From the IMG/VR virus record IMGVR_UViG_3300024279_000007, positions 676-64,675 of that record: a DNA stretch of 64,000 bases; one strand, 5' to 3'. The notes below the pieces were generated by a model that was not told the DNA's origin, ran no database searches, and saw only the letters and a program-made list of their open reading frames with translations. Shown here piece by piece: positions 33,173-55,428 of this stretch (the first letter of the stretch is position 1; each line of letters opens with the position of its first letter). This DNA comes from a virus. A program made the translations under genes and the position numbers.

Positions 33173-33308
33173 GTGACGTTTGTGACGTTTCTTTGGGTAA
33201 GTGTAGTTAGTGACGTTAGTGACGTTTATACCCCTAAATCATAAAACTCTCTATACGAGCGCTGGCAGGAAAAACCTCTAAAAGGGTAAGAAACGTCACT
33301 AACGTCAC
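33173..33308. repeat. Iteron-like origin element downstream of the primase
   Basis: GTGACGTT at 33173, 33182, 33210, 33219; AT-rich spacer; inverted copies at 33292 and 33301. Confidence 0.8.
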
Positions 33309-33354
33309 TAGTAAGTAAAAACCCTTATAACTGAACAGAACTGGAGAACTGAAC

Positions 33355-33813
33355 ATGAAAGAACTGAACACCCTTAGTCGCACTGAAGCGATTGAACAGG
33401 TAGCGAGCCTGTTCATTCAGGCCGACGCCTTGGTAGTCGATCTGGCGAACGCACCCGGCTACCCGGACATGATGGTGCTGGTGAAGGACTGCATGCCGCT
33501 GTTCATCTTCGTGCGACCGGATGACGTGGCCAGCCCTGTCTGGGCAGAGGCCAAGGTGGTGGTGGAAAAGAACCTCGCTGCCGTGAACGCCACGTGGTTC
33601 GATGCAACCGAAGTCAGCGATCTGGACTGGGTGCTGGGTGAAGTCATGCACCGGACCAAGCCGGGTGAAATCAAGCAGAAGTCTGTTCAGTTGACGGCTG
33701 AACAGCAGGGATTCGATTTCAGCCCTTCTGGCGGGTCGGCGGAAAAAGTGGCTACCCCTGCACCGGACGAAGCGAACCAGCGGCAGCGCGCTAGGAAAGC
33801 GTGGCTGGAATGA
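33355..33813 (+). CDS. Degenerate VRR-NUC-like protein
   Basis: GYPDMMVLV...LFIFVRP parallels the next gene's GVYDRIVVL...FVELKRP but lacks E-x-K. Confidence 0.55.
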   Translation: MKELNTLSRTEAIEQVASLFIQADALVVDLANAPGYPDMMVLVKDCMPLFIFVRPDDVASPVWAEAKVVVEKNLAAVNATWFDATEVSDLDWVLGEVMHRTKPGEIKQKSVQLTAEQQGFDFSPSGGSAEKVATPAPDEANQRQRARKAWLE

Positions 33814-34130
33814 GCAAAAGAAAGGTGAGGGAGAGTGCCATCGAAACCCTGTTTCGGGAAGGCGTCGAAGCACTGGGCGGAAAAGCCTACAAGTTCGTCA
33901 GTCCGGGAGAGGCAGGAGTGTATGACCGGATCGTGGTTCTGCCTTACCTGCCTGTTCATTTCGTGGAACTGAAACGACCGGGCAGGGATCTGGACCCGTT
34001 GCAGGTGCTGTTCAGGGATTACGTGGCTGAACGGGGCCATCCACACGCGATGCTGGATTCTGCACCGGCAGTGGCGACGTGGCTGGCTGAACGGGCAAGG
34101 GAAATAGCGAGACGCAGGAAACTCTCATGA
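33810..34130 (+). CDS. VRR-NUC nuclease
   Basis: ESAIE...GGKAYKFVSPG..GVYDRIV...FVELKRPG...Q. Confidence 0.9.
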   Translation: MSKRKVRESAIETLFREGVEALGGKAYKFVSPGEAGVYDRIVVLPYLPVHFVELKRPGRDLDPLQVLFRDYVAERGHPHAMLDSAPAVATWLAERAREIARRRKLS

Positions 34131-35635
34131 GCACGATCTGGACACCACGCGTTTATCAGCAGCACGGGCTGGACTTCGTGCTGGAGACACCGGACTGCGG
34201 CCTGTGGTATCCGATGGGCCTCGGCAAGACCAGCGTGATAGCGAGCGCGGTCAGCTTTCTGCTGTACGACTGCTTTGACGTGCGGCGCGTGCTGATCGTG
34301 GGACCGAAGCGGGTGGCCAGCAAGGTATGGCCGGACGAGTTCAGGAAGTGGAAGCATCTGGCCTACATGCAGTACCGTGTGCTGAAGGCAGAGGACTTCG
34401 GTCTCACGCCGACCTACCAGACGCTGGACTACTACGACGCGGTACTGGAGACGATCCGCAAGAAAGAGAAGAAGGGCAAGCTGGCCTTCGGGTATGACCG
34501 GGAAGATGGACAGGCCAATCGCAAGGCGAAGGCAGCAACGAAGAAGCTGCTTCAGTCCTACCGTGAACGCATCCACATTGTAAGCTGGGATTTTCTGGAG
34601 TACCTTGTGGACGCCTACGGCAGCAACTGGCCGTATGACATGGTGGTGCTGGATGAAGCCAGCTTCGTGAAGAATCAGGACACCAACCGGTTCAGGGCCT
34701 GCCGTGACTTCAGGAAGCAGACAGGCCGGATCGTGCAGGCGACTGGCACACCGGCATCGAACGGCCTGCTGAATATCTGGAGCCAGTTGTGGATACTGGA
34801 CAAAGGCAGACGGCTGGGCGAGACGTACAGCGCCTACCGGTCAGCGTACTTCAGCCCCGCAGCGACGGGCAGGGATGGCACGGTCTATAGCTGGGCGATT
34901 GACAAGGGAGCGAAGGCGCGCATCTACGACAGGATAGGCGATATCGTCATGTCACTGCGGGCTGAAGACTGGATTGATCTGCCGGACCTGATCGACAATC
35001 CGATCTGGGTGGACCTGCCGGATGAAGCACGGGAACTGTACAACAAGGTAGAAGCCGATCTGGTTGCCATGATGCGTGGACACCAGATCAGCGCACGTAA
35101 CCCGGCAGCACTGGTCAACAAGCTGATGCAGATAGCGAACGGCACGGTCTACGATGATGGACGCAAACCACAGCCGGTGCACAAGGCCAAGCTGAACGCG
35201 CTGTCCGAACTGGCGGAAGCTGACGACGGTAACCTGCTGGTGGCGTATGTGTACCGGCCTGAAGCTGAAGCCATCCAGAAGCACTTCGGACGCAAGGCCG
35301 TGAAGCTGGACAGTGATGCCAAGCTGGACGACTGGAACGCAGGGAAAATAAAGATAGGCTATGCGCATGCGGCAAGCATTGGCCACGGAACGAACATACA
35401 GGCAGGCGGCAACAAGACCGTGTGGTTCGGACCCACTCACAATCTCGAACACTGGCAGCAGTTCAACGCACGACTCAGACGCAGCGGACAGGAAGCGGAT
35501 CACGTTGTCCAGTCGTGCATCATGGCCAGTAACACGCTGGACAGACACGTAAGGTATCGGGTGCTGGCCGACAAGGAAGACGACCAGCAAGACCTGATGG
35601 ACGCGGTACTCGCCAGAATAGGGGAACTGCAATGA
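34127..35635 (+). CDS. SNF2-family helicase
   Basis: MGLGKT, VVLDEAS, ATGTPASNG, KLMQIANG, SIGHGTNIQ.GG, QFNARLRRSGQ. Confidence 0.95.
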   Translation: MSTIWTPRVYQQHGLDFVLETPDCGLWYPMGLGKTSVIASAVSFLLYDCFDVRRVLIVGPKRVASKVWPDEFRKWKHLAYMQYRVLKAEDFGLTPTYQTLDYYDAVLETIRKKEKKGKLAFGYDREDGQANRKAKAATKKLLQSYRERIHIVSWDFLEYLVDAYGSNWPYDMVVLDEASFVKNQDTNRFRACRDFRKQTGRIVQATGTPASNGLLNIWSQLWILDKGRRLGETYSAYRSAYFSPAATGRDGTVYSWAIDKGAKARIYDRIGDIVMSLRAEDWIDLPDLIDNPIWVDLPDEARELYNKVEADLVAMMRGHQISARNPAALVNKLMQIANGTVYDDGRKPQPVHKAKLNALSELAEADDGNLLVAYVYRPEAEAIQKHFGRKAVKLDSDAKLDDWNAGKIKIGYAHAASIGHGTNIQAGGNKTVWFGPTHNLEHWQQFNARLRRSGQEADHVVQSCIMASNTLDRHVRYRVLADKEDDQQDLMDAVLARIGELQ

Positions 35636-36198
35636 ACTTTGAAAAACTCTCTCAGTTGACAATCGGTGTATCAGGATTCACGGAACGTGTATCGGGAACA
35701 GCATTCAAGGATAGTGACTGGACAGACATGGCACGGGCGATTGGCAATGCAGCACCGGAGTCCGCTGATCTGCTGCGTGGTCTGTACCTGCATGATGAAC
35801 GGGCGACGCGGCGCGTCTTCTCCCGACTGGCGGAAGCCTACACACTGGCAGGCGTACCGAAGAAGCTGGCAAGGGAATGTGCACGGGTCACGTTCGGTGC
35901 GTTCCTTGCAATGCGACCGTGCGAGCACTGCGATGGCAAGGGCATGATCAAGATGCCGGGTGGAATGAGACTGGACATTGAAACAGGGGAATGGACGGAA
36001 CACAAAGGGGGCTGGAAGAAGTGTGCGTGGTGCAGGGGAGACGGTGCAACGCATGTCCCCGCAATGGTTGCGATGGAAGCGTTGCACGTCAGTGGGCAGG
36101 TATGGGAAGGACTGCTGGAAGTGCCATACGACGCAATCTATGCGCTGTTGCGTCGCTGGCATAACAACGGGGTGGCAGCGATCATCGGTACGGTGTGA
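35632..36198 (+). CDS. Q-like antiterminator / late regulator with zinc finger
   Basis: CEHCDGKG and CAWCRGDG repeats; last gene of the replication operon. Confidence 0.6.
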   Translation: MNFEKLSQLTIGVSGFTERVSGTAFKDSDWTDMARAIGNAAPESADLLRGLYLHDERATRRVFSRLAEAYTLAGVPKKLARECARVTFGAFLAMRPCEHCDGKGMIKMPGGMRLDIETGEWTEHKGGWKKCAWCRGDGATHVPAMVAMEALHVSGQVWEGLLEVPYDAIYALLRRWHNNGVAAIIGTV

Positions 36199-36369
36199 AC
36201 GGATTGCGCTGGCGTGAGCCCCGCACAATCCGCCCCCTGCTGTCACACTGGACCAGTGCACGGTAGGTCCACATGCAGTGTCGGCACGACACGGGAGACC
36301 AGATCAGCCTTTCGATAAACTCATCGCGAAAGGCTGGCTGGACTTCACGAAATTCAGCCTGCTGTTCAG

Positions 36370-36783
36370 TTATAAACATGGCCGTTTCACTCCTGCAAGT
36401 CTTTCAAGCACATCACGGGTAAGGCCTTCCTTTGCCATTCTCTGCTTCACCAGCGAGACCGTTTCAGCAGAGCGTTCGCGCACACCGGGATCGGTGGCAA
36501 TTTCTACCCGTAGTTCAGCTTCTGTCAGAATCTGGTACAGGTCAGCATAGGTTATGGCCATGATGGTTCCTCCTGTGAGCACAGCGATAAAGTAGGGCGT
36601 GGTCATGTCGGCCTTCGCACGGTAAGCGGTAGGCAGTGCGCCGGACAGAAAGTATTCACCCTTCATTGGACAGCGCGCTGGCTGTCCATCCCAGCGAGCA
36701 AACTTCGGGTAGGCCTTGCCATTGCGCCAGTTGAAGCCTTCAGCAGTCACCTTTCTAAAGCCAATAGCAGGACGTTTCATCAT
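36370..36783 (-). CDS. Early hypothetical protein, probably two fused ORFs (internal start 36561)
   Basis: AGGAGG RBS before an in-frame internal ATG. Confidence 0.55.
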   Translation of the reverse strand: MMKRPAIGFRKVTAEGFNWRNGKAYPKFARWDGQPARCPMKGEYFLSGALPTAYRAKADMTTPYFIAVLTGGTIMAITYADLYQILTEAELRVEIATDPGVRERSAETVSLVKQRMAKEGLTRDVLERLAGVKRPCL

Positions 36784-37164
36784 TCACCCCTTCAAGGTTT
36801 GTCCGCAGCACGGGCAGCGAGTCTTTGCAGCCCGTTTCATGCCACGGTAGACGGCAGAGGCATCAATCCCGAATTGCTTGGCAGCAGCATAGGGTGAGCC
36901 ACCCGTTTCCTTCATCCAGTGCAGCGCCTGCTGCGTTCTGGACAGTTCCACTTCAAGCAGTGGCTTTGTGTAGGTACCGGTCAGCACAAAGCCATCGTCA
37001 AGCACATCAGGCAAGTCGGGCACCAGTGCCCGGATACTCACCTTGCCATCGTCCCGTTTGTAGACGGCGATACCCTGCACCGATTCGAGCGCAGCCTCAA
37101 CCTTCTGCTGCGTATCTTCATCGAACAGGGCCATCAGTTCATCGTAGGTCATGTTCAACTCCAT
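36784..37164 (-). CDS. HTH plus zinc-ribbon protein
   Basis: SPYAAAKQFGIDASAVYRGM and CPCCGQ. Confidence 0.7.
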   Translation of the reverse strand: MELNMTYDELMALFDEDTQQKVEAALESVQGIAVYKRDDGKVSIRALVPDLPDVLDDGFVLTGTYTKPLLEVELSRTQQALHWMKETGGSPYAAAKQFGIDASAVYRGMKRAAKTRCPCCGQTLKG

Positions 37165-37224
37165 GCAACACCGATCAGGATGCCCAGTACCAGCATCACC
37201 AGTATGGACGCGATCACGTCCAGC

Positions 37225-37659
37225 TTAACTCTGCGCAGCATCTTCTGTCTCCCGGTAGACGGTGAAGCACACCTGACACATGTTCACCGGTCGAATGTCC
37301 AGTGAGCCGTTACCGAAATTCGACACGTTGCAGCGCAGACCTGTCCAGCCGATCAGCGCCTTCACGCGACGCACAAAGGCCAGATGCGTGGTGCCCTGCG
37401 GGACTTCCAGCGTATGGCGCTTGACCCAGCAGTAGTTAGCTTCACCGCCAAAGGTGTCCGTGACTTCAATGTCGTACTTGACCATTTTGTTCTCCAGTTC
37501 AATAGGGATGATGCGGTACCAGCTTGCAGGCATGCCATTACGCAGCATGGCGCGGGCCACGCGCCGCTTGGCATCCCGTTCACGGATGAAGGGTTGACCG
37601 ACCGGGAGCCAGTAGTTATCGAACATTGCCTGTTTTGCTTCCACCTGATAGCGTGCCAT
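37225..37659 (-). CDS. Early hypothetical protein, probably two fused ORFs (internal start 37485)
   Basis: Starts in the repeat unit; internal GGAG RBS before MVKYDIEVTDTFGGEANYCWVKR. Confidence 0.6.
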   Translation of the reverse strand: MARYQVEAKQAMFDNYWLPVGQPFIRERDAKRRVARAMLRNGMPASWYRIIPIELENKMVKYDIEVTDTFGGEANYCWVKRHTLEVPQGTTHLAFVRRVKALIGWTGLRCNVSNFGNGSLDIRPVNMCQVCFTVYRETEDAAQS

Positions 37660-37718
37660 GATGTTCTCCTGTTCAGGGGAGTGAGAAAGACACAGCACCC
37701 TGTCACGGTGCTGTAGCG
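37655..37718 (-). repeat. 64-bp hairpin-RBS unit, copy 1
   Basis: Identical to 38153-38216. Confidence 0.95.
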
Positions 37719-37995
37719 TGTCACTCGTCTTCCAGAACCTCTACAACGAATAGCACGGGGTTTGCTGCATCGGTATCATGTGATGCCGCTTCCAGTGCCA
37801 TTGGCAGATACATCAGGTGCTTCCATACGCTGAAGTCAGCGCGAAGCACCTTGTACGTTTTCATGATGTTCTCCTAGTAAAGCCCCGCAATGATGTAGAT
37901 GGCGCAAACCCTTGCACTGCGCCGATGCTGTTCAGCCCATTTGTGATCGGACTGGGCCAGCATCAGATAGGTGAGTAGCACTTTCGCGTAGGTAC

Positions 37996-38157
37996 TCATG
38001 CTGGCTTAACCGAAGTCACTGCGCCAATCACCTGATAGTTTTCAAGCGCAAACTCGACTGCCTTGTCCCGTGCTTCTTCAGCATTGCTTGCGTCCACCTG
38101 CAATAGCTGACAGTCAGACTGGTCGATTGCGTCAAAGCGGACGATGTATGAAGCCAT
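37996..38157 (-). CDS. Early small hypothetical protein
   Basis: ATG lies inside the repeat unit. Confidence 0.65.
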   Translation of the reverse strand: MASYIVRFDAIDQSDCQLLQVDASNAEEARDKAVEFALENYQVIGAVTSVKPA

Positions 38158-38216
38158 GATGTTCTCCTGTTCAGGGGAGTGAGAAAGACACAGCACCCTG
38201 TCACGGTGCTGTAGCG
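38153..38216 (-). repeat. 64-bp hairpin-RBS unit, copy 2
   Basis: Identical to 37655-37718. Confidence 0.95.
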
Positions 38217-38361
38217 CTTCACTCGCTACCAGCGAGCAAGATGGTAGGTGAAATAGATATAGCTACCATTCTGCCGCTGGACCTTACGGGTGTGGGGATG
38301 CGTCAGGCCACCTAACGTACAGAAGTACAGATACGTGATCTGGTTTGCAGACGTGCAGGGT

Positions 38362-38682
38362 TCAGTGCGCATGGTCGTCTACCGCTATTCCCAGACGGGC
38401 CTTGAAACGGTCATACGGGCGAAACTCGGCATTGCCATCACTGTCCTGCGTGAAGTAGCCACCGATGTAGTGGCCACGGTAACGGGTGCAGGCAGGGACG
38501 CTGAAGAAGGTGTCAGCGTAGCCTGTGGCGTAGCAGGTGAGCGTGAGACCGGGAACGCCAGCCACTGGACACTTCTGGACCTTCGCCCACGGACCCAGAC
38601 AGTCCATCGGACCGCCCGGTCTCCAGCCGATTGCGCCATTGGCAAAGACGAAGGATTCGCGCGCTGCAAATTTCTGGCACAT
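38362..38682 (-). CDS. Early hypothetical protein
   Basis: Shared CTGAACAGGAGAACATCATG initiation module. Confidence 0.7.
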   Translation of the reverse strand: MCQKFAARESFVFANGAIGWRPGGPMDCLGPWAKVQKCPVAGVPGLTLTCYATGYADTFFSVPACTRYRGHYIGGYFTQDSDGNAEFRPYDRFKARLGIAVDDHAH

Positions 38683-38695
38683 GATGTTCTCCTGT

Positions 38696-38890
38696 TCAGG
38701 TGAGTGAATGCCATTCATACGAGGCATACTGTTTGTTGTCCAGCAAGATGAAGACGGTGTGAGTCGGACCCATTACATCGTGCAGATAGGATGCAATGCC
38801 GTGCGCACGGTTCACGCTGTCCGTTTCTTCGGTGCGGAACATCAGTCCGCCCCTTCTCCACACTTCAACCTGATAAGTCTTTGAAGCCAT
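38696..38890 (-). CDS. Early small hypothetical protein
   Basis: Preceded by a hairpin-RBS unit variant. Confidence 0.7.
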   Translation of the reverse strand: MASKTYQVEVWRRGGLMFRTEETDSVNRAHGIASYLHDVMGPTHTVFILLDNKQYASYEWHSLT

Positions 38891-38954
38891 GATGAAACTC
38901 CTACGGGTGAGAGAGTCAAAGCGGACTCCGGAGAATCCGCTTTAGCGCGTCACC

Positions 38955-39935
38955 TTATACAGTCAGCAATTCGAGCATTTTGGTTTTGGCCTTGTCGCCA
39001 TCACCGAACCATGCGCTGGACAGACGGTTTTCAGCCGACTGGGCACGGACATGGTAATCGTAGTATTCCGTGACAGCGTTCAGCAAACCCCAACGCGTGC
39101 CCTTCACACCGTCCATGTTTGCGCCTTTGCCTTCTCCGTTAAACAGCGCCATGATGGTTTTGAAGCCACGCGTATCACGCACATCGGACACTTCTTCAGC
39201 AGTAGCCTTTTCCCAGTCCTTGTCGGACAGCAGTTCAAAGACGTACTGTTCAGATGCTTCAATCCCGCACGACTCCATTGCCAGCAACTTCATCTGGTGT
39301 GCCCATGCGGTAAAGCCATCGCGTTCAATGCCAAGCTGGTCCTTCATCTTGTTCGCATCAAACTTCGAACGATGCGACAGCTTGATTTCATGCTTTGCCT
39401 TGCCAGACAGCGCCATCGAGAGGGTGTTATTGCACACAACCCGAATGGTAGTCATCCGGCCAGACGTGGCCAGCGAGCCATCGGCAGACGTGGACAGCAG
39501 CAGATACCCGCCAACCATGTCAGCAGCAGACTTGATGACTGCCGTTTTGCCGATGTGAGCCAGTGCCCAGAAACGCCTGCCGCCGAACATCGTGCCAGCC
39601 GTTTCCATCGTGAACCCTGCGCATTCCGTCAGATCGCGGAAAAACTCCATGCAGTCACGGGGCTGGACAATCTGGTACCGGTCGGAGACGATGCCAAGGT
39701 GGTTTTTGTTGTCCGACCTGAACAGCACGTGCTGGTCATCAATGATGCGCTGGTTCGGGCCTTCGCCATAGCGAACGCGTGAACGGTTGATTTTCCAGTC
39801 CATCCCTGCTGCGACGATCCACTGGTCCAACGTCGTATCTGTTTCGAGACGCTGGCCTAGGCCGTGCCAAGGCGTGTCGCCAACATAAGCCATTTCGAAG
39901 GTGCCGTTAGCGCGCTGGGTAAGTTCGTGAGCCAT
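38955..39935 (-). CDS. DUF932 family (phage/plasmid-like) protein
   Basis: MAYVGDTPWHGLG, GIVSDRYQIVQP, GGRRFWALA, YLLLSTSADGS, T.IRVVCNNTL, WGLLNAVTEY. Confidence 0.9.
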   Translation of the reverse strand: MAHELTQRANGTFEMAYVGDTPWHGLGQRLETDTTLDQWIVAAGMDWKINRSRVRYGEGPNQRIIDDQHVLFRSDNKNHLGIVSDRYQIVQPRDCMEFFRDLTECAGFTMETAGTMFGGRRFWALAHIGKTAVIKSAADMVGGYLLLSTSADGSLATSGRMTTIRVVCNNTLSMALSGKAKHEIKLSHRSKFDANKMKDQLGIERDGFTAWAHQMKLLAMESCGIEASEQYVFELLSDKDWEKATAEEVSDVRDTRGFKTIMALFNGEGKGANMDGVKGTRWGLLNAVTEYYDYHVRAQSAENRLSSAWFGDGDKAKTKMLELLTV

Positions 39936-40008
39936 GATAAAACTCCTGAGTGGGTACTGCGGGTGAGAGAACACAAGCGGACTGGACAAGGCAATCCGCT
40001 TGTATGCG

Positions 40009-40326
40009 TCACCGGCGATCTGCGACAGGCTGGTCGTTCAGGTAGACCACGTGATTTTTCGAGTAGACGTTCGCACCAAGGGCACGCAGACGGCTAATGG
40101 TGGTGTTGGTCGGCCAGTTACGCAGGGTTTCTTCAATCACCTGCAACTCCATCTTGTCGTGCCGTACCTGCTGAAGGTTGGCAATGTGATGGCCATGCAG
40201 GTAGACGCGGGACACAGGCAGATCGTTTGCCTGATTCGTGCAGGCCTTCACTTCCGTGTTGCTGTGGTGCCAGTCACGAACGTGAAGTGCTGCATCCAGC
40301 ATCTGCTGTTCAATTTTGCGGGCCAT
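40009..40326 (-). CDS. Early hypothetical protein
   Basis: Shared initiation module; VYLHGHHIA, TTISRLRALG. Confidence 0.7.
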   Translation of the reverse strand: MARKIEQQMLDAALHVRDWHHSNTEVKACTNQANDLPVSRVYLHGHHIANLQQVRHDKMELQVIEETLRNWPTNTTISRLRALGANVYSKNHVVYLNDQPVADRR

Positions 40327-40339
40327 GATGTTCTCCTGT

Positions 40340-40408
40340 TCAGGCGAAGGGGTGGATGATCGAGATAACGACAGGGATGAAGATGATCAGCAAGAGAGCG
40401 AGTTTCAT
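40340..40408 (-). CDS. 22-aa hydrophobic peptide, first ORF of the early transcript
   Basis: GGAG RBS; MKLALLLIIFIPVVISIIHPFA. Confidence 0.5.
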   Translation of the reverse strand: MKLALLLIIFIPVVISIIHPFA

Positions 40409-40420
40409 TTTGTGTTTCTC

Positions 40421-40630
40421 CGGTGGCAGAACGAAGCACACTGAACAGTGCGCTTTGGTCTGCCGGACGCTGGCAGGCTTGGATGCCATGCGTCCGGTGC
40501 ACCTCGCGGTGGACTTCGCACTCGTCTGAGTTGTCACCTCAGAGTCCTAGCGGTCTCTGGTTGGGGTGTGGCTTCATCAGCCCTAGCTTTCCCTTCCCAG
40601 CTACTCGGTCGATCCCTCGACCTTGGACTC
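40421..40630 (-). ncRNA. Highly structured ~210 nt early 5' leader / small RNA candidate
   Basis: Chain of stems with GNRA loops from the predicted +1 to the first RBS. Confidence 0.55.
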
Positions 40631-40631
40631 A

Positions 40632-40660
40632 ATTATAGGACACAGCACTGTCAATGTCAA
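40632..40660 (-). promoter_or_regulatory. Perfect-consensus sigma70 early promoter TTGACA-17-TATAAT
   Basis: -35 at 40655-40660, -10 at 40632-40637. Confidence 0.95.
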
Positions 40661-40805
40661 ATAGGTGTTTACCCTAATGCCCTGTCTACCGCAGCACAAG
40701 GGCCTCACCTGTCTGAAAATTTTTTGCTATGCTTCGTCCGGGCCATTGCGTCCACATCAATCCGAACCCAGCCATGCGCTGGGTTTTTTGTTTCTGGAGC
40801 CACCT

Positions 40806-41207
40806 GTGAGCACAACAGTTGAAATCACGCTAGGCGACGATGGAAAGATCAGTGTCGGGTTGACCGATGCGCCGTCCAGCGTGCCTGAAGACATGCAGCC
40901 CGCCAGTTCACTGGCCGATGCCCTGCAAATGGCCAGGCACATTCTGAGTAACCCGCAGGCAGCGCAGCAGGAAGAAGCCAGCGAGCCACCTGACGGTGAC
41001 GATGACACAGCACTGTCTGGTAGTGCTGCTGCGACTGCCGGGTCAGGCGGCACGCCTAACGGCAAGGGTGGCGGCACGGGTCCGGACCAGTCTGGCCCAG
41101 CCGTGGCAGATGACACACAGGGTCCGGGTGCAGCCACTGGCAATAACGGACAGGACGCGAAAGCGATCTGGGATGCACTGGCAAACATGAATCTGCCGCA
41201 GCACTGA
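40806..41207 (+). CDS. Acidic low-complexity hypothetical protein
   Basis: GGAG RBS + GTG; first gene of the late strand. Confidence 0.65.
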   Translation: MSTTVEITLGDDGKISVGLTDAPSSVPEDMQPASSLADALQMARHILSNPQAAQQEEASEPPDGDDDTALSGSAAATAGSGGTPNGKGGGTGPDQSGPAVADDTQGPGAATGNNGQDAKAIWDALANMNLPQH

Positions 41208-41265
41208 ACAGTAACAGGCTGAATCACTGTTCAGTGTCGATCTGAACAGCGGTGGCATTTAATCA

Positions 41266-42102
41266 GTGATTCAGGGGGCTTCGATGCTAAACGGTATCAC
41301 GCGCACACATAAGAAGGCGTTCAGCGACATGCTGGACAAGCCTGAACCGGTCAAGTCCAGTCGCTGGGCTGCAATGATGGCTGATCCGGTTGAAAAGCTG
41401 AACACGCAAAAGGAATCGGTTTCCTCAAGCTCCCCTGAACAGGGGAACGCTGAACAGGCAGAAAACGCAGCACTTCTCAGATTGGCCGGTGGCGACCATG
41501 AGAAGGTGGCCATGTTAAAGAAGGCCATTGAAGCACAGGCAGCAGAGCGCTATGCCGGTGCCGTGGCACTTGACCACGCGATGAACGCAGTACTGCGCCG
41601 ACGTGAGGGACAACTGGAGAAGCTGACGCCTGAGTACGTGAAGATGCGTCAGGGCATCAAGTGCACTCCTGAGTTACTGGACAGCATACTCGCTGAAGTG
41701 GCTGAAGGCGTGAGCATCTATCGCATATGCAAGCGTGATGACATGCCAACGCCGTCTGCCGTGAACCAGATGCTGAACAGTGCTGACTGGCTCGCGAAGT
41801 ACCAGACCGCACTGCTGCGCCGTGCTGACAAACATGTAGACGAGATAGCCGATGCGTCGCGTGAACTGACGGCAGCAGTGGCGGCAGGTGCATCGTCTGA
41901 AGTGGTGAACGCCATCAAGGTGCACATCAATACGCTGCAATGGGTAGCAGCCCGGATCAATCCGAAGTACAGCGACAAACAGACCATTGACCTGAATGCG
42001 ACAGTGAAGATGACTGAATCACAGGTTGACCAGCGTCTTCGTGCTCTGCTGGGCAAGGCCGGTGTAACACTGGGAGAAGGTGATGCAGCTTCGTCCACCT
42101 GA
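41266..42102 (+). CDS. terS: Terminase small subunit with long N-terminal extension
   Basis: LLDSILAEVAEGVSIYRICKRDDMP...YQTALLRRAD...QWVAARINPKYSDK (Sf6/P22-type); upstream of terL. Confidence 0.8.
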   Translation: MIQGASMLNGITRTHKKAFSDMLDKPEPVKSSRWAAMMADPVEKLNTQKESVSSSSPEQGNAEQAENAALLRLAGGDHEKVAMLKKAIEAQAAERYAGAVALDHAMNAVLRRREGQLEKLTPEYVKMRQGIKCTPELLDSILAEVAEGVSIYRICKRDDMPTPSAVNQMLNSADWLAKYQTALLRRADKHVDEIADASRELTAAVAAGASSEVVNAIKVHINTLQWVAARINPKYSDKQTIDLNATVKMTESQVDQRLRALLGKAGVTLGEGDAASST

Positions 42103-43594: not shown

Positions 43595-43595
43595 C

Positions 43596-43790
43596 ATGGA
43601 AGACTGGCAGCAGCGTGTGAAAGACGAGCATGCAGACCTGACCGTGAAGCTGCACAAACTGAAAGCGTTCCTGTGTGGCAAGGGCGTTGAAGCGCTGACG
43701 CCACGAACCAAGCGCCTGATGATCAAACAGCGCGATGCAATGGAAGACTATTGCTGGGTGCTGGCCGAACGTATCAAGGACTTCACATGA
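43596..43790 (+). CDS. Small coiled-coil phage protein
   Basis: WQQRV..E...L..KL.KL.AFL pattern common in phage genomes. Confidence 0.7.
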   Translation: MEDWQQRVKDEHADLTVKLHKLKAFLCGKGVEALTPRTKRLMIKQRDAMEDYCWVLAERIKDFT

Positions 43791-47030: not shown

Positions 47031-47230
47031 GTTCAATCAACGCAGTGACCTACGTACTGGACAGCGGTGGCGTGCCGTTCAGTCCCGAATCGTGTGCGCA
47101 TGTCTACGGCTACACCGGCAGTGACATGACAAGCGACACGGCAACAGACGCACAGGGCATCGTGCGCAAGAAGACCTACGTGTACGCGGCTGGGATCATC
47201 CAGTCCGAAACCGCGTGGGTCCGGCAGTAA
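47027..47230 (+). CDS. Small hypothetical protein opening the enzyme insert
   Basis: ATGA-coupled to the portal gene; KKTYVY...SETAW tail. Confidence 0.7.
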   Translation: MSSINAVTYVLDSGGVPFSPESCAHVYGYTGSDMTSDTATDAQGIVRKKTYVYAAGIIQSETAWVRQ

Positions 47231-47251
47231 TCAACCAAGGAATGAACCGAC

Positions 47252-49090
47252 GTGAATCTGAATTACACAACCGACTGGCTTGCCAACACCCGTGGACTGA
47301 ACAACACCCGTGTTGGCAACTGCGCACGTTCGATGTGGGTGGCCCCGGAAGGCGTCATCTACACGGCGTCAATGTGGGATGAGAATGAGGGCGGTGTCGC
47401 CATCTACAGTGGCGGCGCGAACGCCGGTTCGATTGGTGTGCATAACGAGTTTCAGGGCGGCGCGATCACCGGCACGACCACGAAAATCTTCGCGGCACTC
47501 CAGTACAACGCGTCACTGGGCGGCAGCGGTCTCGTTGGCCGGTATGACCGTGTAAGCAAGGCCCGTGACTACATAATCGTAGTCAGCGCCACGACCACGG
47601 AGCGTCGCGCCGATGTGGTCACGGGCCTCGCATCATGGAGCCAGTGGCTTGCGGCCAGCGATTTCCCCGGCAACCGCGTGCGCATCTACAACACCAGTGG
47701 CGTGTGGCAGCTTGATATCCCGGTGAACGGTCCGGGTGCACTGGCGTTTGACCGCAACGGCAATATCTGTGTGGCCCAGAAGGCGCTGGGTCTGGTGTCG
47801 CGCTATAACCGCACGACGGGTGCGCTGATCGACATGATTACGCTGGACAGCGCAGCACGTCCGGCAGCGCTCTACTTCGACCCGGCCACGCAGTATCTGT
47901 GGATTGGCGACGAAGGCCCGGACCAGAACATCAAACAGTACAACATCAGCAGCACGCCGGTGTTCGTGACGACGTTCGGTGTGACGGGTGGTTATCTGGA
48001 CACCACGACGGGCATCAAGGGGCAGGTGGGCAGCAAGCGCTTCACCCGTGTGCACGGCATCGGCAAGGACAGTGCGGGCAACCTGTACGTACTGAACAAC
48101 CCGTGGGGTGGTACGTGGGACTTGGGCCGTGATGGCGGCACCGACATTCACTCGTACAGCGCAGCCGGTAACCTGCAATGGACGTTGCAGTCGGTGAACT
48201 TCGAAGGCGTGGCAGCACCGGACCAGATCGCGGACGGCACGTTCTACGGCGGCTGCAACATCTACTCAGGCACGGCTGGCGGCACGTTCGTGGCGAACAC
48301 GATTGACCCGTTCACATACCCCGGTGATCCGCGCATCAACCTGAACACGCCCAGCCGTGGCTCGCACTTCGGTCAGGTCGCGGCAATTGGTTCGAACCGC
48401 ATTCTGGTGTCGTGTGGACAGAACCCGGATGGTTTCGAGCTATACCACTTCACCCCGACAGGCGGCTATATCGCGGTGCCTGACGGTGTGGTACCGGGCC
48501 TGTTCTCCACGGCACGCGTGCGGCACGGCTACTGTCTGGCTCCCAACGGAGACCTGTGGATTGGCTTCGACAAGACGGGCGTCATTTCACACTATCCGCT
48601 GGCGAGTTTCGACGCGAACGGCAAACCGTCGTGGGGCGCTGCTGTCACGTACCCGATCCCCGCGAGTATCGGCCTGCTGACGCGGATCATCTATCTGCCG
48701 GACACCGACACGCTGATCCTTGCCAGTGGCATCGGCACGGACTGGACTTCAGTCGGCACGCGCGTCGAAGTGTATAGCGGCTGGCTGGCGGGCAACCGGA
48801 CGCCGATGGTCATCACGCTGTCCAGCACGAACCCGAAGGCACTGGCAGCGGCAGGCAACTACCTGTTCGTGGGCTACGTGCATACGGTGCCGAACATTGA
48901 CGCGTTCAACCTGACGACCGGCGCGCTGGACAACACGTTCATCAACGCCAACAGCAGCACGGTGGACGTGGGCAACGATGTGGACTCGATGTACGGTCTG
49001 TGCGCTTTCTTGCGCTCGACCGGTGAGTACGTGGTGACGAAGGACAACTACAACGATGCCAGCGTGATCGTGCATCGCTGGACACCCTGA
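47252..49090 (+). CDS. NHL/SMP-30-like beta-propeller protein
   Basis: Repeated blades such as GPGALAFDRNGNICVA, PAALYFDP, HGIGKDSAGNLYV; no signal peptide. Confidence 0.75.
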   Translation: MNLNYTTDWLANTRGLNNTRVGNCARSMWVAPEGVIYTASMWDENEGGVAIYSGGANAGSIGVHNEFQGGAITGTTTKIFAALQYNASLGGSGLVGRYDRVSKARDYIIVVSATTTERRADVVTGLASWSQWLAASDFPGNRVRIYNTSGVWQLDIPVNGPGALAFDRNGNICVAQKALGLVSRYNRTTGALIDMITLDSAARPAALYFDPATQYLWIGDEGPDQNIKQYNISSTPVFVTTFGVTGGYLDTTTGIKGQVGSKRFTRVHGIGKDSAGNLYVLNNPWGGTWDLGRDGGTDIHSYSAAGNLQWTLQSVNFEGVAAPDQIADGTFYGGCNIYSGTAGGTFVANTIDPFTYPGDPRINLNTPSRGSHFGQVAAIGSNRILVSCGQNPDGFELYHFTPTGGYIAVPDGVVPGLFSTARVRHGYCLAPNGDLWIGFDKTGVISHYPLASFDANGKPSWGAAVTYPIPASIGLLTRIIYLPDTDTLILASGIGTDWTSVGTRVEVYSGWLAGNRTPMVITLSSTNPKALAAAGNYLFVGYVHTVPNIDAFNLTTGALDNTFINANSSTVDVGNDVDSMYGLCAFLRSTGEYVVTKDNYNDASVIVHRWTP

Positions 49091-49123
49091 AGTAACAACC
49101 CCCAACCAACGGAGCAATCCAAC

Positions 49124-51175
49124 GTGTCTTCTTTGACCGATAACTTCTACAAGGCAAACCTGTCGCGCGGCATCGCGGGCACCCTTGCCGCATCTGTCGA
49201 TATCAGCGATCTGCTTGTCGCTGGGGATCAGACTCAGGCCGCAGCCAACGCTGCGTCCCTTCAGGCCATCATCGCTGCGATGGTTGCGGACGGCAATTAC
49301 CGGCCCATTACCATCAAACGCGCTGGCTCGTACTACTTCAATCAGGTGAAGCTGTACGACAACATTCACTTCGACATTGGCGTGAACGTGTCGATTGTGA
49401 AGCCGGACAACTACCAACCCTCGATGTTCATCAACGAAGGCGCACTGAACGGCACGCCGACCGCGAACAAGAATATCAAGATCACCGGACGCGGCACGAT
49501 TGACGGCAACGTGGCCAACCAGTCTGGACAGACGCAGGCCATCGCCGGTGCGATCACCGCCAACACGTTCCTGTACGGCATTCAGGGCGAGATTGCGATG
49601 ATCAACGTGGACGGTCTCGAAGTCGCGGTGCGCAACCCGAAGAACTGTCGTGGCTTCTTTGTCCAGTTTCAGGGCAGCAACGGGCACTTCCACGACATGC
49701 GTCCCGACACGACCACGGACTTCATCCACATCAACGGCCCGACGAACCACGTCGTGGTGCAGGATTGCAAGGGCTTCTCCAGTGCGGACTTCATCGGTCT
49801 GAACGCATGGGACTGGCACCGCAACGGTCCGACCACGGGTACGATCAACGACATTACGGTGAAGGACTGCGAATACAACGGCAGCAACGGCACGGGCGCT
49901 TATGCCCACACCGGCATGTTCGTCAAGTTCCTGTCCGGCACGCGTACCACGGGTGCAGGCGCGAATGGTCTCGCGGCCATCCAGAACGTGCGGATCGACG
50001 GTTTCAAGTGCGATCCGACCATCGGCACGGCTGTGGCCAACTCGCCGTGCTTCGGCATGATCGGTGACTGGGATCAGGCCCAAGGCACGGAGTACAGCGG
50101 TGTCGGTCTGGTAGAGAACGTCACGATCAAGTCTGGACAGAGCACCGTGCCGTCCTATCTGGGTCCGTTCTTCCTGCTGGCAAAGACGGCCAGCCCTTCG
50201 GACGCGGACGGCCAGTGCTCGGTGAACGTGCGCCGCTTCACGGTTGAGTCGGTGTTCGTGGACTGTTCGAAGGGTCAGCAGAACAGCTACAACCCGATTG
50301 GCTTCATGATGAAGTACAACACCTGTACGCTGAACGATGTGGTGTTCCGCGACATGGACTGGACACCTGCACCGCTGAACAGCGATCAGGGCTTCATCAC
50401 GCTGGCCAACAAGACGCTGATTGACTCGTTCGAAGTGGACGGCCTGACGATCAACGAGAACACGGGAGCAACCGCAGCCACGGCAGTCGTGCTGGTGGAC
50501 CGCTATGACGGCGTGAACCCCTGCATCGTGGACGACTTCACGTGCGACCGCATCAAGACTTCGGCAGGCTACCTGCTGCGTGGTGCGTGGCTGAAGGTGA
50601 ACGCCGGTATCAATAACTTCCGTTCGCGCGGCAACCATATCAACGGTGCTGGCAACAGCAGTGTGTACGGTTCGGGCATCTACGTGAACACGTCGGTGGC
50701 GTTCATCAAGCGCGGTGTGATCAGTGAGGCAGTGTTCAACGGTGTGCTGATCGGTGTGAATATCGACAGCGTTTCCGCCACCGGCGTGAACATGCACTAC
50801 GAGAACTGCAACCTGATCAACATGTCGCACCCGGTGTTCGTCAACGGTGCCTTCAATGCACGCGTGACGTACCGTGGCGGCAATATCGACACGTCCACCA
50901 ATCTGGTCAACTCGCAAGGCACGCTGACGGTCTCGTACGACGGCACCACGTCCAGCGGTACGGGCGCAGCCACACTGACCCGCAGCGCGGGCACGGTGCG
51001 CGTGCTGAAGTCGGATCAGATCGCGTTTGCCGCAGCCGCGCCGATGAACCCGGCCAACAACGATGTAGTGCTGTTCAGCGCAACCCCGCCTGCCTCGCCC
51101 AACGCGACGACCGGCACGGGTGCTGGCACCTACATTTACAGCGGTTCGGGTTCGAACTGGATCAAGCAGAACTAA
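49124..51175 (+). CDS. Beta-helix (pectin-lyase-like) tailspike/depolymerase 1
   Basis: AASLQAII N-cap, GRGTIDGN, DFIHING, N/G/T/I/V-rich repeats. Confidence 0.75.
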   Translation: MSSLTDNFYKANLSRGIAGTLAASVDISDLLVAGDQTQAAANAASLQAIIAAMVADGNYRPITIKRAGSYYFNQVKLYDNIHFDIGVNVSIVKPDNYQPSMFINEGALNGTPTANKNIKITGRGTIDGNVANQSGQTQAIAGAITANTFLYGIQGEIAMINVDGLEVAVRNPKNCRGFFVQFQGSNGHFHDMRPDTTTDFIHINGPTNHVVVQDCKGFSSADFIGLNAWDWHRNGPTTGTINDITVKDCEYNGSNGTGAYAHTGMFVKFLSGTRTTGAGANGLAAIQNVRIDGFKCDPTIGTAVANSPCFGMIGDWDQAQGTEYSGVGLVENVTIKSGQSTVPSYLGPFFLLAKTASPSDADGQCSVNVRRFTVESVFVDCSKGQQNSYNPIGFMMKYNTCTLNDVVFRDMDWTPAPLNSDQGFITLANKTLIDSFEVDGLTINENTGATAATAVVLVDRYDGVNPCIVDDFTCDRIKTSAGYLLRGAWLKVNAGINNFRSRGNHINGAGNSSVYGSGIYVNTSVAFIKRGVISEAVFNGVLIGVNIDSVSATGVNMHYENCNLINMSHPVFVNGAFNARVTYRGGNIDTSTNLVNSQGTLTVSYDGTTSSGTGAATLTRSAGTVRVLKSDQIAFAAAAPMNPANNDVVLFSATPPASPNATTGTGAGTYIYSGSGSNWIKQN

Positions 51176-51187
51176 AAGAGGATCAGC

Positions 51188-52654
51188 ATGCGAAGCGTAT
51201 ATACCGATAACTTCAAGCAGAGCGTGCTGGCCGGTCTGGGTATCCCCCTGACCGACAGCCGGTGTGTCTCGTCCTTCCCTTCGTCCGGCACCGACGATAC
51301 CGCGCAGATCGCAGCCGCGTATGCGTGGCTGGCGGGTGGCCCGTACCGGGGCCTGTGGTTTGAGTTCCGCCAGTACATCATATCTGGACAGCTTGCCCTG
51401 ACCGGCGCAGTCAACTTCCGCATCTTCGGGAACGGCGCGTCGATCAAGGCAGCGGACGGCAGTGCGGCTGGTGCCGGTACGCAGATGTTCTACATGACGA
51501 ACAGCACGGACGGCGAGATTTACGACCTGAACTACGATGGCAACCGCGCGAACCGCACGCCGTCTGAGACCACTAGCCACCTGTTCGAAATCTACACCGG
51601 TTGCGCACGCATTGACGTGTTCAACTGCCGTGCTGATAACGCGGTGTGCGATGGCTTCTACGTCGGTGCCCAGTCGCCCACGTCGCTGAACGTGCCGACC
51701 GATATCCGCTTCTTCCAGTGTTCAGCCGACAACGGCTACCGCAACTGCATGTCCCTCATCAACTCGGTGCGCTTCCGTGATTATGACGGGGTGTACACGG
51801 GTGCTAACGGCACGCTGCCGAAGGCCGGTGTGGACGTGGAGCCGAACAGCAGCACGGATATCGGCAACGTGGACTGCCAGTTCCACCGCACGCGCTTTAC
51901 CGGCAATGCGAACTACGGTTTGCAGGTGACGCTGGCGAACTCGCAGGTGAAGTGCTTCGATATCGTGTCCAGCGGGAACACGGGCGGCGCGGTCGGCTGC
52001 TTCTCGTCGGGCAGTCTGGAGATTCAGGGCATCACGATGGAAGACTATACGTCGTCCGTCACGCGTGGCCTGATCGACGTGGGTTCCGGAAGTGGCTATG
52101 TCAGCGTGGACGGCATCCGCATCAACAACTGCCAGCAGAACAACAGCGCCAAACCGATGATCTATGTGCATGCGGCGGCAACGGGTCCGGTGCGCTTCTC
52201 GGATATTGTCCAGCGCAACAGCAAGGGACCGACGCTGGTGTCGTACCTGAAGGCCTACGTGGACGGTTTCGCGATGTACGGCGACAACAACGACTACGCC
52301 TTCACGCTGCTGGGTGCAAAGAACAGTGTTCTGCGCAACCTGTACAGCGATGGCAGCGGCGCGATGCTGTACACGGAGCAACCGTGCACGGACGTGGAGA
52401 ACGTCAAGATGGTCAACCCGCTTCCCACGGGTGGCCTTCTGTTCTTCGCGGCAGTGGCCACACGGTGCTCGCTGAAGAACATGCACGTGCATCAGGACGT
52501 GGCAGTTCCCGCTGGACAGATTGGTTGCCAGTTTGCTGTGGCACCGCTGGTCCTGTCCAACAACGTCGGCACCTGCGACGGTACTGCCTACACAGCTGCG
52601 CAAGTACGCAGCATAACGGGCACGCCTTCCGTGTCGCTGGGCCTTTTCCCGTAA
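51188..52654 (+). CDS. Beta-helix depolymerase 2
   Basis: GTDDTAQIAAA, DGFYVG, DNGYRNCMS, AGVDVEPN motifs. Confidence 0.8.
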   Translation: MRSVYTDNFKQSVLAGLGIPLTDSRCVSSFPSSGTDDTAQIAAAYAWLAGGPYRGLWFEFRQYIISGQLALTGAVNFRIFGNGASIKAADGSAAGAGTQMFYMTNSTDGEIYDLNYDGNRANRTPSETTSHLFEIYTGCARIDVFNCRADNAVCDGFYVGAQSPTSLNVPTDIRFFQCSADNGYRNCMSLINSVRFRDYDGVYTGANGTLPKAGVDVEPNSSTDIGNVDCQFHRTRFTGNANYGLQVTLANSQVKCFDIVSSGNTGGAVGCFSSGSLEIQGITMEDYTSSVTRGLIDVGSGSGYVSVDGIRINNCQQNNSAKPMIYVHAAATGPVRFSDIVQRNSKGPTLVSYLKAYVDGFAMYGDNNDYAFTLLGAKNSVLRNLYSDGSGAMLYTEQPCTDVENVKMVNPLPTGGLLFFAAVATRCSLKNMHVHQDVAVPAGQIGCQFAVAPLVLSNNVGTCDGTAYTAAQVRSITGTPSVSLGLFP

Positions 52655-52667
52655 TCAGGAGCCTGCA

Positions 52668-54068
52668 ATGAATCTCGGTCAGTTCGCGGTATTCGCGAAG
52701 ATTCTCGGTCTCGGCAAGGCAGTGAGCACGGTCGCAGGTGGCCCGAATGGCGTGGACGACACTGCTTCATTGCAGGCGATCATCAACACCATTGTGGGCA
52801 ACCCCGGCAAGGGGCTGAAGATACCGGACGGTCGCTACAAGATCAGCGCGCCCCTGAACATCGGGGTGGACAACTCCAGCATCGTGACGGGCATCAAGAT
52901 TGAAGGCTCGTCACGCGGCGGTGTGATCATCGAACAGATGACCAACAACGTGCCGATCTTCAACGTCACTGGACAGTTCGTTCACTCCTGTCACTTCAAG
53001 ACGATGACGCTGCTGTACACCAACCAGCAGTCAACGGACAACGGTGGCAACTGCTTCAAGGTGAACGGTCCCGGTGGTGGCAGCTTCTACAACTCCACCT
53101 TCGAAGACATAACGGCCACGAAGTTCTACTACTTCATGGACTGCCCGACTGTCACGTGGTGGGGCAATATTTATAACGACATGTGGTTCGGTGCCTTCAG
53201 TGGCGGCATTAACCGGATCAGTGCCGTGGCCGGTGAGCCTCGCTGTACCTTCCGTAACCTGTACATCACGGGTGAACTCGCAACAAACACGCTGTTCAGG
53301 CACACCGCCATGACAGCGCTGTACGACAACATCGAAATCAACAACTGCGTCAACGGTGTGCCGATTCTGGCAGACGTGAGTGGTGGCACGCACGTTATCT
53401 CACACCTTGCGCTGGAAGGCGCGACGTATGCCACTGGTACGACGCAACTGTTTGAAGTCTCGAACAGCCGGTTGATTGCGGACTATATCTATCTGACCGC
53501 GCTGGTGCTGAACGCGGGCGCGGTGGTGTATGCGTTCCACCCGCAGGGTGGCAAGTCCATCGCACACATCAAGGTGCTTGAACTGGCGTTCAGTTCCAAC
53601 AACGGCCAGTTCTACTGTTTCAACTCACAAGGCCCGATCCCCAGCATGCTGGGGGAAGTGACCGGCCTGAATCCGGCTGGTGGCTCGACGCTGTGCGATA
53701 TCGGTGGCTCGGTCGCGGCCAACTTCATGTATGTGCAGCGCTGGAATGAAATGTCACGGATTGCGTACAAGGGTGATGCAGATGCCTCGCTCCTGTATGA
53801 CGATCCGGCCACGCAGGTGCTGGACATACCGACCACGGCAATCCGCACGGTCACATTGCCACAGGCTACGGCTGTGGCCAGTACCGCGATGTTCTCGGGC
53901 CGTCGCTTCAAGTTTGTGCGGACCGCTGCCTCGACGGGTGGTTTCGCATGGAACATCAACGACTCAAGTGCGGTACAGCAGGCCACCCTCGCGGCTGGAC
54001 AGTCAGTTGAATTTGTCTGGCAGCGCAGCGGGGCAGGCACCAACTTCAAGTGGGTCAAAGTAGGCTAA
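52668..54068 (+). CDS. Beta-helix depolymerase 3
   Basis: GVDDTASLQAIIN...IPDGRYKISAPL pectate-lyase-3-type N-terminus. Confidence 0.8.
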   Translation: MNLGQFAVFAKILGLGKAVSTVAGGPNGVDDTASLQAIINTIVGNPGKGLKIPDGRYKISAPLNIGVDNSSIVTGIKIEGSSRGGVIIEQMTNNVPIFNVTGQFVHSCHFKTMTLLYTNQQSTDNGGNCFKVNGPGGGSFYNSTFEDITATKFYYFMDCPTVTWWGNIYNDMWFGAFSGGINRISAVAGEPRCTFRNLYITGELATNTLFRHTAMTALYDNIEINNCVNGVPILADVSGGTHVISHLALEGATYATGTTQLFEVSNSRLIADYIYLTALVLNAGAVVYAFHPQGGKSIAHIKVLELAFSSNNGQFYCFNSQGPIPSMLGEVTGLNPAGGSTLCDIGGSVAANFMYVQRWNEMSRIAYKGDADASLLYDDPATQVLDIPTTAIRTVTLPQATAVASTAMFSGRRFKFVRTAASTGGFAWNINDSSAVQQATLAAGQSVEFVWQRSGAGTNFKWVKVG

Positions 54069-54084
54069 CCAACAGGAGCATTAA

Positions 54085-55281
54085 ATGCGTTCCAAGCTGA
54101 ACGGAATTATCAGTTCGAAAAGAGGCGCAAAACGCGCCATCGCCATCGGGGACTCGATCACCGCGATGGACGCAGTACAGGCTGGCTCGGGACTCTGGAC
54201 ACAGGGTAACGGCTGGTTTGAACAGGCCATCCGGACTGGCTATGACGGTCCCTTCGCGTTCGTCCGCAATGCAGGCGTCGCAGGCAACACGGCGCAGCAG
54301 ATGCTGGCCCGGCTGGACACGGACGTACTGGCCTACGCGCCGGACGTGGTGTTCATCATGGCGGGCACCAACAACATTCTCACGGGCGCAACGAACACCG
54401 ACTACGCGAACTGCATGAACGCCATCGAACAGATGGTGCTGCGCTGTCTGGTGTCCGGCATTGATGTGGTGCTCTCGACGCCGCCTGCCAAGGATGGCGC
54501 GAAGCTGGAAATGAACAAGGCCATTCCGCTCTACTTCCGGCTCGCGCAGCACTACGGTATTCCGCTGATCGACGCGCACCGTGCGACGGTGGACCCAGTG
54601 ACGGGCGGCTACCGCGCTGGCCTGTCCGATGACGGCACGCACCCGAATCAGGCCGGTATCAAGGAAATCATGGTTGAGTGGCAGTCGGTCATCCAGCAAG
54701 GTTTTCAGGACGTGTTCCGTGCCCGCGTGGCAGAGACCTCGGCGGGTTCGATCACGAACTACATTCGCAACGGCAACTTCGTGAAGAACACGTCGCCGCC
54801 CGCGATGGACAACTGGACAGTCAACACGACCGGCGCGACGTTCACGCAGGACACGACGGGTCTGGGTGGTCCATTTCACCTGTCCGGCAAGCAGTTCGAC
54901 TACGTGAAGACGGCGGCAGGCGGCGCGTATGCGCTGTACGGCACGGACGCTGACTCGGGCTACGCGGACGGCGACACGCTGGTGTTCAGCGGTCTGTTCG
55001 GCTGCACGTCGCTCGCAGCTTCCCCGAACGGCTACACGATGCTGTTGCAGTTCGGCAGCGCGGACAGCGTGCGCCCGTACAACACGACCAAAAAGGTGCA
55101 GGGCGCGCTGGAGTCGTTCAGTCAGGAGTTCGTGGTGCCGACCGGCTACGCGGGCGTGAACGCACTGCTGCCGCAACTGTTTGTTCAGGACGTGGGCACC
55201 TACCTCGTCGCTGAACTGACGCTGTGGAACAAGACGAAGTACGACGCAATCTGGAAGCCGGGTGCGCTTCTGAACGTCTAA
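54085..55281 (+). CDS. SGNH/GDSL esterase with C-terminal beta-sandwich domain
   Basis: GDSIT, GVAGNT, AGTNN and DGTHPN blocks. Confidence 0.9.
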   Translation: MRSKLNGIISSKRGAKRAIAIGDSITAMDAVQAGSGLWTQGNGWFEQAIRTGYDGPFAFVRNAGVAGNTAQQMLARLDTDVLAYAPDVVFIMAGTNNILTGATNTDYANCMNAIEQMVLRCLVSGIDVVLSTPPAKDGAKLEMNKAIPLYFRLAQHYGIPLIDAHRATVDPVTGGYRAGLSDDGTHPNQAGIKEIMVEWQSVIQQGFQDVFRARVAETSAGSITNYIRNGNFVKNTSPPAMDNWTVNTTGATFTQDTTGLGGPFHLSGKQFDYVKTAAGGAYALYGTDADSGYADGDTLVFSGLFGCTSLAASPNGYTMLLQFGSADSVRPYNTTKKVQGALESFSQEFVVPTGYAGVNALLPQLFVQDVGTYLVAELTLWNKTKYDAIWKPGALLNV

Positions 55282-55291
55282 AAGCTGTTCA

Positions 55292-55391
55292 GTTAGTGAC
55301 GTTAGTGACGTTTCTGAATCAAAAATCAATTTTCTCTATATGTACGTCTAGGGAAAACTGAAAAAGAGGATAGAAACGTCACAAACGTCAC
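55292..55391. repeat. Second copy of the iteron-like element
   Basis: GTTAGTGACGTTAGTGACGTTT identical to 33206-33227; AT-rich spacer; inverted pair at 55375 and 55384. Confidence 0.85.
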
Positions 55392-55428
55392 TGCCCTTCT
55401 CTCCCCCTGAACGAAACGGAGTTTCATC

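Follow-up and report, generated by a model that had tools for sequence, protein, structure and literature searches.

The stretch of DNA analysed here (the window) comprises 64 kilobases (kb), positions 676 to 64,675, of the IMG/VR virus record IMGVR_UViG_3300024279_000007, a soil phage genome of 65,858 base pairs (bp) that is rated complete and has a G+C content of about 60% (A+T 40% for the window). It carries the same type of repeat element twice, once directly behind the gene of a primase-helicase (locus A) and once among the late genes (locus B). Both loci are, with high probability, origin cores of a known class that are read by the phage's own primase-helicase. The kind of origin is known; new is the lineage-specific second core. 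The gene and the parts of the two loci are as follows.

30412..33135, + strand: primase-helicase gene, 907 amino acids, with PriCT-2, D5_N and SF3 ATPase domains (Pfam, PHROG)
32881-33096 (residues ~824-895 of the primase-helicase): predicted C-terminal winged-helix domain
33173-33308: locus A overall, starting 38 bp past the stop codon of the primase-helicase gene
33173-33189, + strand: locus A, distal direct iteron pair (repeat search)
33201-33209, + strand: locus A, degenerate third unit in 9-bp register with the proximal pair
33210-33226, + strand: locus A, proximal direct iteron pair (9-bp register)
33227-33291, no strand: locus A, spacer of 65 bp, 60% A+T, without a centred inner palindrome
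33292-33308, - strand: locus A, inverted iteron pair
55296-55391: locus B overall, without the degenerate unit
55287-55295, + strand: locus B, degenerate unit
55296-55312, + strand: locus B, direct iteron pair
55313-55374, no strand: locus B, spacer of 62 bp, 69% A+T
55330-55338 and 55349-55357: locus B, arms of a centred inner palindrome of the spacer, enclosing an alternating pyrimidine-purine core
55375-55391, - strand: locus B, inverted iteron pair

At both loci, two direct repeats of the octamer GTGACGTT (9-bp period) are followed by an A+T-rich spacer of 62-65 bp and two inverted repeats. In the window, 15 copies of the octamer were counted where 3.1 are expected, and 10 of the 15 lie inside loci A and B. 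The 17-mer formed by a paired iteron is found five times in the 65,858-bp record, each time within these loci. A generic detector of the layout, defined as a direct pair followed after 40-100 bp by an inverted pair of the same word, likewise returned only loci A and B from the whole genome. Both spacers contain the blocks CTCTATA, GGAAAA and AAAAG. As single strands, both loci fold into a stem, of 20 bp at locus A (z = -6.2) and of 18-20 bp around a loop of ~60 nucleotides (nt) at locus B (z = -7.4). An earlier reading made from the sequence only (the sequence-only reading) had described the 9-bp-periodic repeats, the 62-65 bp AT-rich spacer, the shared blocks and the inverted pair at both loci, and all of these were recovered. 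It had also counted 22 identical bp, for which the longest run shared by the two loci gives 23 bp, and had noted that the spacers have diverged, which holds at the identity given below.

The primase-helicase and its neighbouring element in other genomes

A Prim-Pol domain (PF09250) is present in homologs that are 45-48% identical to the primase-helicase, and PHROG matches alone place a putative primase catalytic domain at residues 35-243 of the window protein. The structure model of the C-terminal part has a predicted local distance difference test score (pLDDT) above 90 across the last ~70 residues and shows a helix-helix-hairpin fold. Its best match in the PDB is the RFX winged-helix DNA-binding domain, other winged-helix regulators come next, and all E-values are weak; the Foldseek search of the PDB with this model gave nothing at E <= 0.001. 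The winged-helix assignment is based on these weak but mutually consistent matches. The 907-residue protein is the presumed initiator, which would read the iterons via this domain. Its closest cultured relative is the primase of Bordetella phage BPP-1 (40% identity), and a match to PriRep5 (7ola) is weak (E = 0.0028) and confined to the ATPase region.

Searches with the portal and the primase led to a family of 62-66 kb soil phages, whose portals are 77-89% and whose primase C-terminal halves are 55-71% identical to those of the window. In all eight close relatives that were read, the origin architecture sits 3' of the primase gene, in the order distal pair, proximal pair, spacer of 62-65 bp, inverted pair, conserved right flank and small gene, with the distal pair ~18-20 bp 5' of the proximal one. 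The small gene of the window (33355..33813, + strand) encodes 152 amino acids without an assigned family, and its counterparts in relatives encode 139-161 amino acids. The spacer is conserved in the family, with an A+T-rich left part, a core of alternating pyrimidines and purines and a purine-rich right part. The iteron words vary: six other words are found among the relatives, and only one relative shares GTGACGTT. Origins with switched iterons lie at L163:12740-12900, L164:12975-13110, L165:12725-12870, L170:7160-7320, L173:6060-6215 and L175:12720-12870 (record:positions). The recognition helices predicted for eight family members can be sorted into two classes that go with the iteron word, a correlation resting on few, kin sequences, and the residues KSLGRR are common to the helices of both GTGACGTT phages. 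These switches of iteron and helix form a compact natural series for studies of initiator specificity. One relative (L162) has single instead of paired left iterons and an HNH endonuclease gene (1129-1590) a few genes past the origin. A genome record of Paraburkholderia youngii contains a contig of 66,140 bp, a length that would suit an entire phage genome, and the portal encoded there (protein P0021) shares 61% identity with that of the window; this contig is perhaps a clue to the host group and possibly to an episomal state.

The exact layout with GTGACGTT iterons was found in public collections in 14 viral contigs, four bacterial genomes (Nigerium, Conyzicola, a Nitrospirales bin and a Bradyrhizobium bin) and 24 metagenome contigs, and each of these 42 other records contains one element. 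Wherever there is enough flanking DNA, a homolog of the helicase part (24-46% identity) directly adjoins it. The placement next to SF3 helicase genes spans Actinomycetota, Nitrospirota and Pseudomonadota (L133, L134, L135, L136, L137-L160). In Acinetobacter phage 4316, the layout lies 3' of the annotated primase; in BPP-1, a different 9-bp repeat is arranged in this layout 3' of the primase. Across the GTGACGTT records, the iteron word is much better conserved than the adjoining helicases. In some metagenome contigs (L138:1-1809, L143:3-2357 and L142:3-2195, the last on the minus strand), the helicase frame runs on without a stop across the iteron element, perhaps because the origin is contained in the 3' end of the gene, perhaps by chance. 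The sequence-only reading had taken the element for an origin candidate tied to the primase, and this view is strengthened by its place beside homologous helicases in very different genomes, by its constant position in relatives and by published precedent (PMC4234260, PMC9371898).

A different explanation would make the element a mobile palindrome resembling a miniature inverted-repeat transposable element, or an operator or promoter for some other protein, that merely tends to lie near primases. Indeed, terminal inverted repeats of 17-19 bp surround an A+T-rich core, one copy was clearly inserted, and a gene starts 38-47 bp downstream at both loci. This does not readily account for a homologous helicase that is always adjacent, from Actinomycetota to Pseudomonadota, or for an iteron word that changes with the recognition helix of the helicase in close relatives. 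Moreover, genomes elsewhere have one copy and this one has two; the many dispersed copies of a mobile element were not seen, and no target-site duplication borders locus B. Scans for sigma-70 promoters and intrinsic terminators found nothing at locus A or locus B, and a scan of the window against Rfam matched no family. We regard this explanation as very improbable. A literature search for the octamer GTGACGTT returned primer lists only.

Insertion, divergence and intactness of locus B

Locus B and its surroundings are delimited by the following features.

54085..55281, + strand: GDSL/SGNH esterase gene upstream of locus B (PF13472), sharing 57% and 49% identity with its syntenic counterparts in two relatives
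55392..55428, + strand: ancestral intergenic remnant, consisting of the 3' half of the tail of the terminator-like hairpin and the ribosome-binding site of gene X, aligned with the gap in two relatives
55429..56814, + strand: gene X downstream of locus B, 461 amino acids, an orphan that is similar to its syntenic counterparts in relatives over the C-terminal third only
L166:17297-17375 and L161:15454-15523: terminator-like hairpin of relatives, 3' of the first esterase gene and 5' of gene X

The 147-bp gap between the GDSL esterase gene and gene X that locus B occupies belongs to a block of large genes between the portal and the major head protein. With the portal (44682) and the major head protein (59668) on either side, the sequence-only reading was fair in placing locus B inside the head module. 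The order esterase, gene X, second esterase is shared with three relatives, whose proteins are 45-60% identical. In place of B, all three carry a terminator-like hairpin rich in G+C, with a run of pyrimidines behind it. The window retains recognisable sequence after the stop codon, as well as the 3' tail of the hairpin with the ribosome-binding site, and the 5' half of the hairpin was lost to B. The insertion amounts to an exchange of ~28 bp for ~103 bp, and its content is the origin core alone. No target-site duplication was found at the borders of B in the alignment with the relatives' gaps. The borders show microhomology, with AGCTGTT at the left one (a word that recurs upstream of A) and CACTG at the right one; these matches are too short to carry an argument. 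Because relatives with the same GDSL-X-GDSL order have the hairpin and not B, locus B is a separate replacement of ~100 bp; its interpretation as a trace of the acquisition of the enzyme insert, put forward earlier, has to be abandoned.

The neighbourhood itself is variable. The block from 47252 to 58227 (portal to scaffold) differs among relatives, and its genes of 612 and 488 amino acids have no counterpart in the compared syntenic late genes of three of them; the esterase genes are absent altogether in L162. A search for homologs of gene X gave one marginal match. The N-terminal ~260 residues of its product (window 55429-56200) are rich in proline and alanine, and nothing similar to them was detected, even in the syntenic genes of close relatives. 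Related loci were sought in viral contigs for the primase, for the GDSL gene and for gene X, and no relatives were found; a cluster look-up found no variant strains, and megablast of both regions against cultured phages gave no matches.

The position of B, exactly at the site of the relatives' terminator-like hairpin, and its pronounced single-strand fold could speak for a regulatory role, in which B titrates or handcuffs the initiator to limit A, or replaces the lost terminator as a protein roadblock or RNA stem. Extra iteron clusters control copy number in iteron plasmids, by titration or handcuffing in, for example, P1 and F. Nonetheless, no T run follows the stem of B and the terminator scan was empty there. 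B also has a whole origin-like spacer, which would be superfluous for a mere binding site. In the annotated parts of the window and of the relatives, a partial survey saw no partition, integrase or plasmid-maintenance genes. A regulatory role is rated as improbable.

Locus B is no recent copy of locus A. Identity between the spacers of A and B is 47%, whereas the B spacer reaches 57-59% with the origins of three relatives; the most deviant spacer in the family is that of A. If 'duplicated' is meant as freshly copied from A, this description of the element does not survive the comparison, which suggests that B goes back to an old form of A or to an origin in a related phage. Its four octamers are perfect and 34 of 34 iteron-pair bases are intact. 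Of the 22 spacer columns conserved in the family (shared by at least five of six relatives), B keeps 16, a value comparable to those of genuine origins in leave-one-out tests, and A keeps 14. The centred inner palindrome around the alternating core is present in B and in many members of the wider set, but not in A. The deviant spacer of A, with no inner palindrome, invites the question whether A or B makes the better origin.

Within the species, the second copy recurs. Contigs of three further soil runs from other studies bridge B, and the soil samples range from 2018 to 2025. No joints that skip B are listed among the soil-run contigs, the uncovered parts of runs X4-X6 being uninformative. 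One B-bridging strain is ~6% diverged in the upstream gene and nearly identical over 55265-55751; this near-identity fits either conservation or recent spread of the segment.

Known origins and the possible role of the second core

In pRN1, a 100-bp stem-loop (21-nt stem, 58-nt loop) lies just 3' of orf904 and is necessary for replication. Together with the replication operon it is also sufficient, and it functions without its flanks when moved on the plasmid; a similar stem-loop follows the replication gene of Bordetella phage BIP-1, and the element of pRN1 is described as a stem-loop, with iterons stated to be lacking (PMC4234260). Like these systems, the phage has a replication protein that combines an archaeo-eukaryotic-type primase and an SF3 helicase with a predicted C-terminal winged helix. 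Locus A is an inverted repeat of ~100 bp directly 3' of the gene, with a stem of ~20 nt and a loop of ~60 nt. Locus B matches in structure, not in position, and looks like a natural counterpart of the pRN1 element that still works when moved. There is one element in those systems and there are two in this phage. In addition, the stems in the window are tandem iterons with a 9-bp period.

In the Rep/PriRep proteins of Staphylococcus aureus pathogenicity islands (SaPI), a winged-helix C-terminal domain binds iterons, and the origin lies immediately 3' of the gene (PMC9371898; also PMC6092414 and preprint 10.64898/2026.10.17.759575). SaPI origins have at least two oppositely pointing iterons on each side of an A+T-rich centre, where two hexamers are thought to load (PMC9371898). 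Similarly, both window loci have at least two iterons per side, in opposite orientation, around an A+T-rich region. The phage would further share with SaPI and other phage-inducible chromosomal islands a self-loading SF3 helicase with a winged-helix reader, an origin right after the gene and a specificity that varies among relatives. The iterons of the islands are, however, 5-6 bp long and 6-12 in number, compared to 8 bp in the window. The islands are satellites, whereas the window belongs to a full phage of 66 kb that encodes a DNA polymerase of its own (of family A; an SNF2 helicase, a DUF2800 nuclease and a single-strand-binding protein of the Enc34 type are encoded as well). The sequence relation to PriRep5 is weak, and no second, distant copy is described for the islands. 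Locus A fits the descriptions of pRN1 and SaPI alike; the 'stem' of the one is here the 'iterons' of the other.

Two separated clusters of the same iteron on one genome, as in this phage, also occur in satellite phage P4. Its fused primase-helicase has a winged-helix origin-binding domain that reads 8-bp iterons at ori and at crr, several kb apart; crr consists of two 120-bp direct repeats and is required for P4 replication. This arrangement of ori plus crr was reportedly set out by Ziegelin and Lanka in 1995 (cited in PMC6092414). The primase of P4 is of the Toprim type and that of the phage of the PriCT-2/archaeo-eukaryotic type. In P4, crr is fixed and required, whereas the second site of the phage is missing in the DNA read from all relatives. 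Finally, crr has no full inverted-iteron core, unlike locus B.

These precedents suggest how the two loci may operate. The winged-helix C-terminal domain of the primase-helicase would read the 8-bp iterons, and the opposed iteron pairs would place two helicase rings on either side of the ~63-bp A+T-rich spacer, which would then be melted and primed between them. A would be the ancestral origin, retained right after the gene in every relative. B entered one lineage only, displacing the 5' half of the intergenic terminator-like hairpin, and would bind the same initiator as A, thereby serving as a second loading site. A site of high affinity that is intact and has its whole spacer should be able to load the initiator; a second origin or a helper similar to crr is therefore, if the loci are origin cores, the most likely function of B, with about an even chance. 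Taking everything together, a lineage-specific extra site for initiator binding or loading, acting as second origin or crr-like helper, is the best explanation of B, and one that we slightly favour. We propose only tentatively that B functions as an active second origin and arose when a bare ~100-bp core was naturally transposed into a late-gene terminator.

Several observations weigh against an extra loading site. A second cluster of a relative's own iteron was not found in the ~33 kb read from each relative, and at the syntenic position three of them have the hairpin instead. As relatives do without a second copy, B is not needed by the family. The second copy is absent from the DNA of relatives as far as read, the three syntenic ones included, and present within the species in several soil samples. 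None of the 42 other GTGACGTT records contains two elements. Locus B has neither the distal iteron pair nor the conserved right flank of the family, and its intactness would also be seen, without selection, in a segment recently taken from a working origin. The recognition helices of several distant helicases beside GTGACGTT are quite unlike that of the window. Lastly, binding of the iterons by the primase-helicase is something that we infer, as are melting and any replication activity at A or B.

Some of these points would suit a neutral passenger, that is, a stray core that came from a related phage of the same specificity by illegitimate or hairpin-mediated recombination, recently enough to be undecayed. 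It would have no part in replication or expression, even if still bound by the initiator. B is missing from all relatives read, even from the three with the same gene order, and the two-element genome is unique among the 43 records with GTGACGTT iterons. The B spacer is closer to the relatives' origins than to A, as an import predicts, and the near-identical segment in the diverged strain fits recent spread. Yet a terminator-like hairpin that relatives keep was replaced, changing a functional site, and the insertion persisted nonetheless, with B seen in soil over the years mentioned. The iteron pairs and the spacer features of the family are all intact, and an intact high-affinity initiator site is unlikely to be without effect. 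Of the competing readings of B, the neutral passenger is the strongest, though we consider it rather unlikely.

For phages with fused primase-helicases, nearly all origins are predictions only. The family of loci described here offers a testable cognate pair, consisting of an 8-bp iteron and a small winged-helix domain, together with natural switches of specificity. Locus B is a natural experiment in which a bare core was moved, and lends itself to a test of origin portability and of the specificity between iteron and winged helix. If the extra loading site is indeed a transposed, active origin, the core used by archaeo-eukaryotic primases with SF3 helicases would be a portable module that seeds new phage origins, and the initiation of replication would be physically tied to the late operon. 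If B fires, the phage would have gained an origin in one step, and the 'stem-loop' of pRN1 and the iteron origins of staphylococcal islands would be unified; if it is inert, B would be an ordinary recombination scar. In either case, this type of element could aid the annotation of origins in many uncultured phages.

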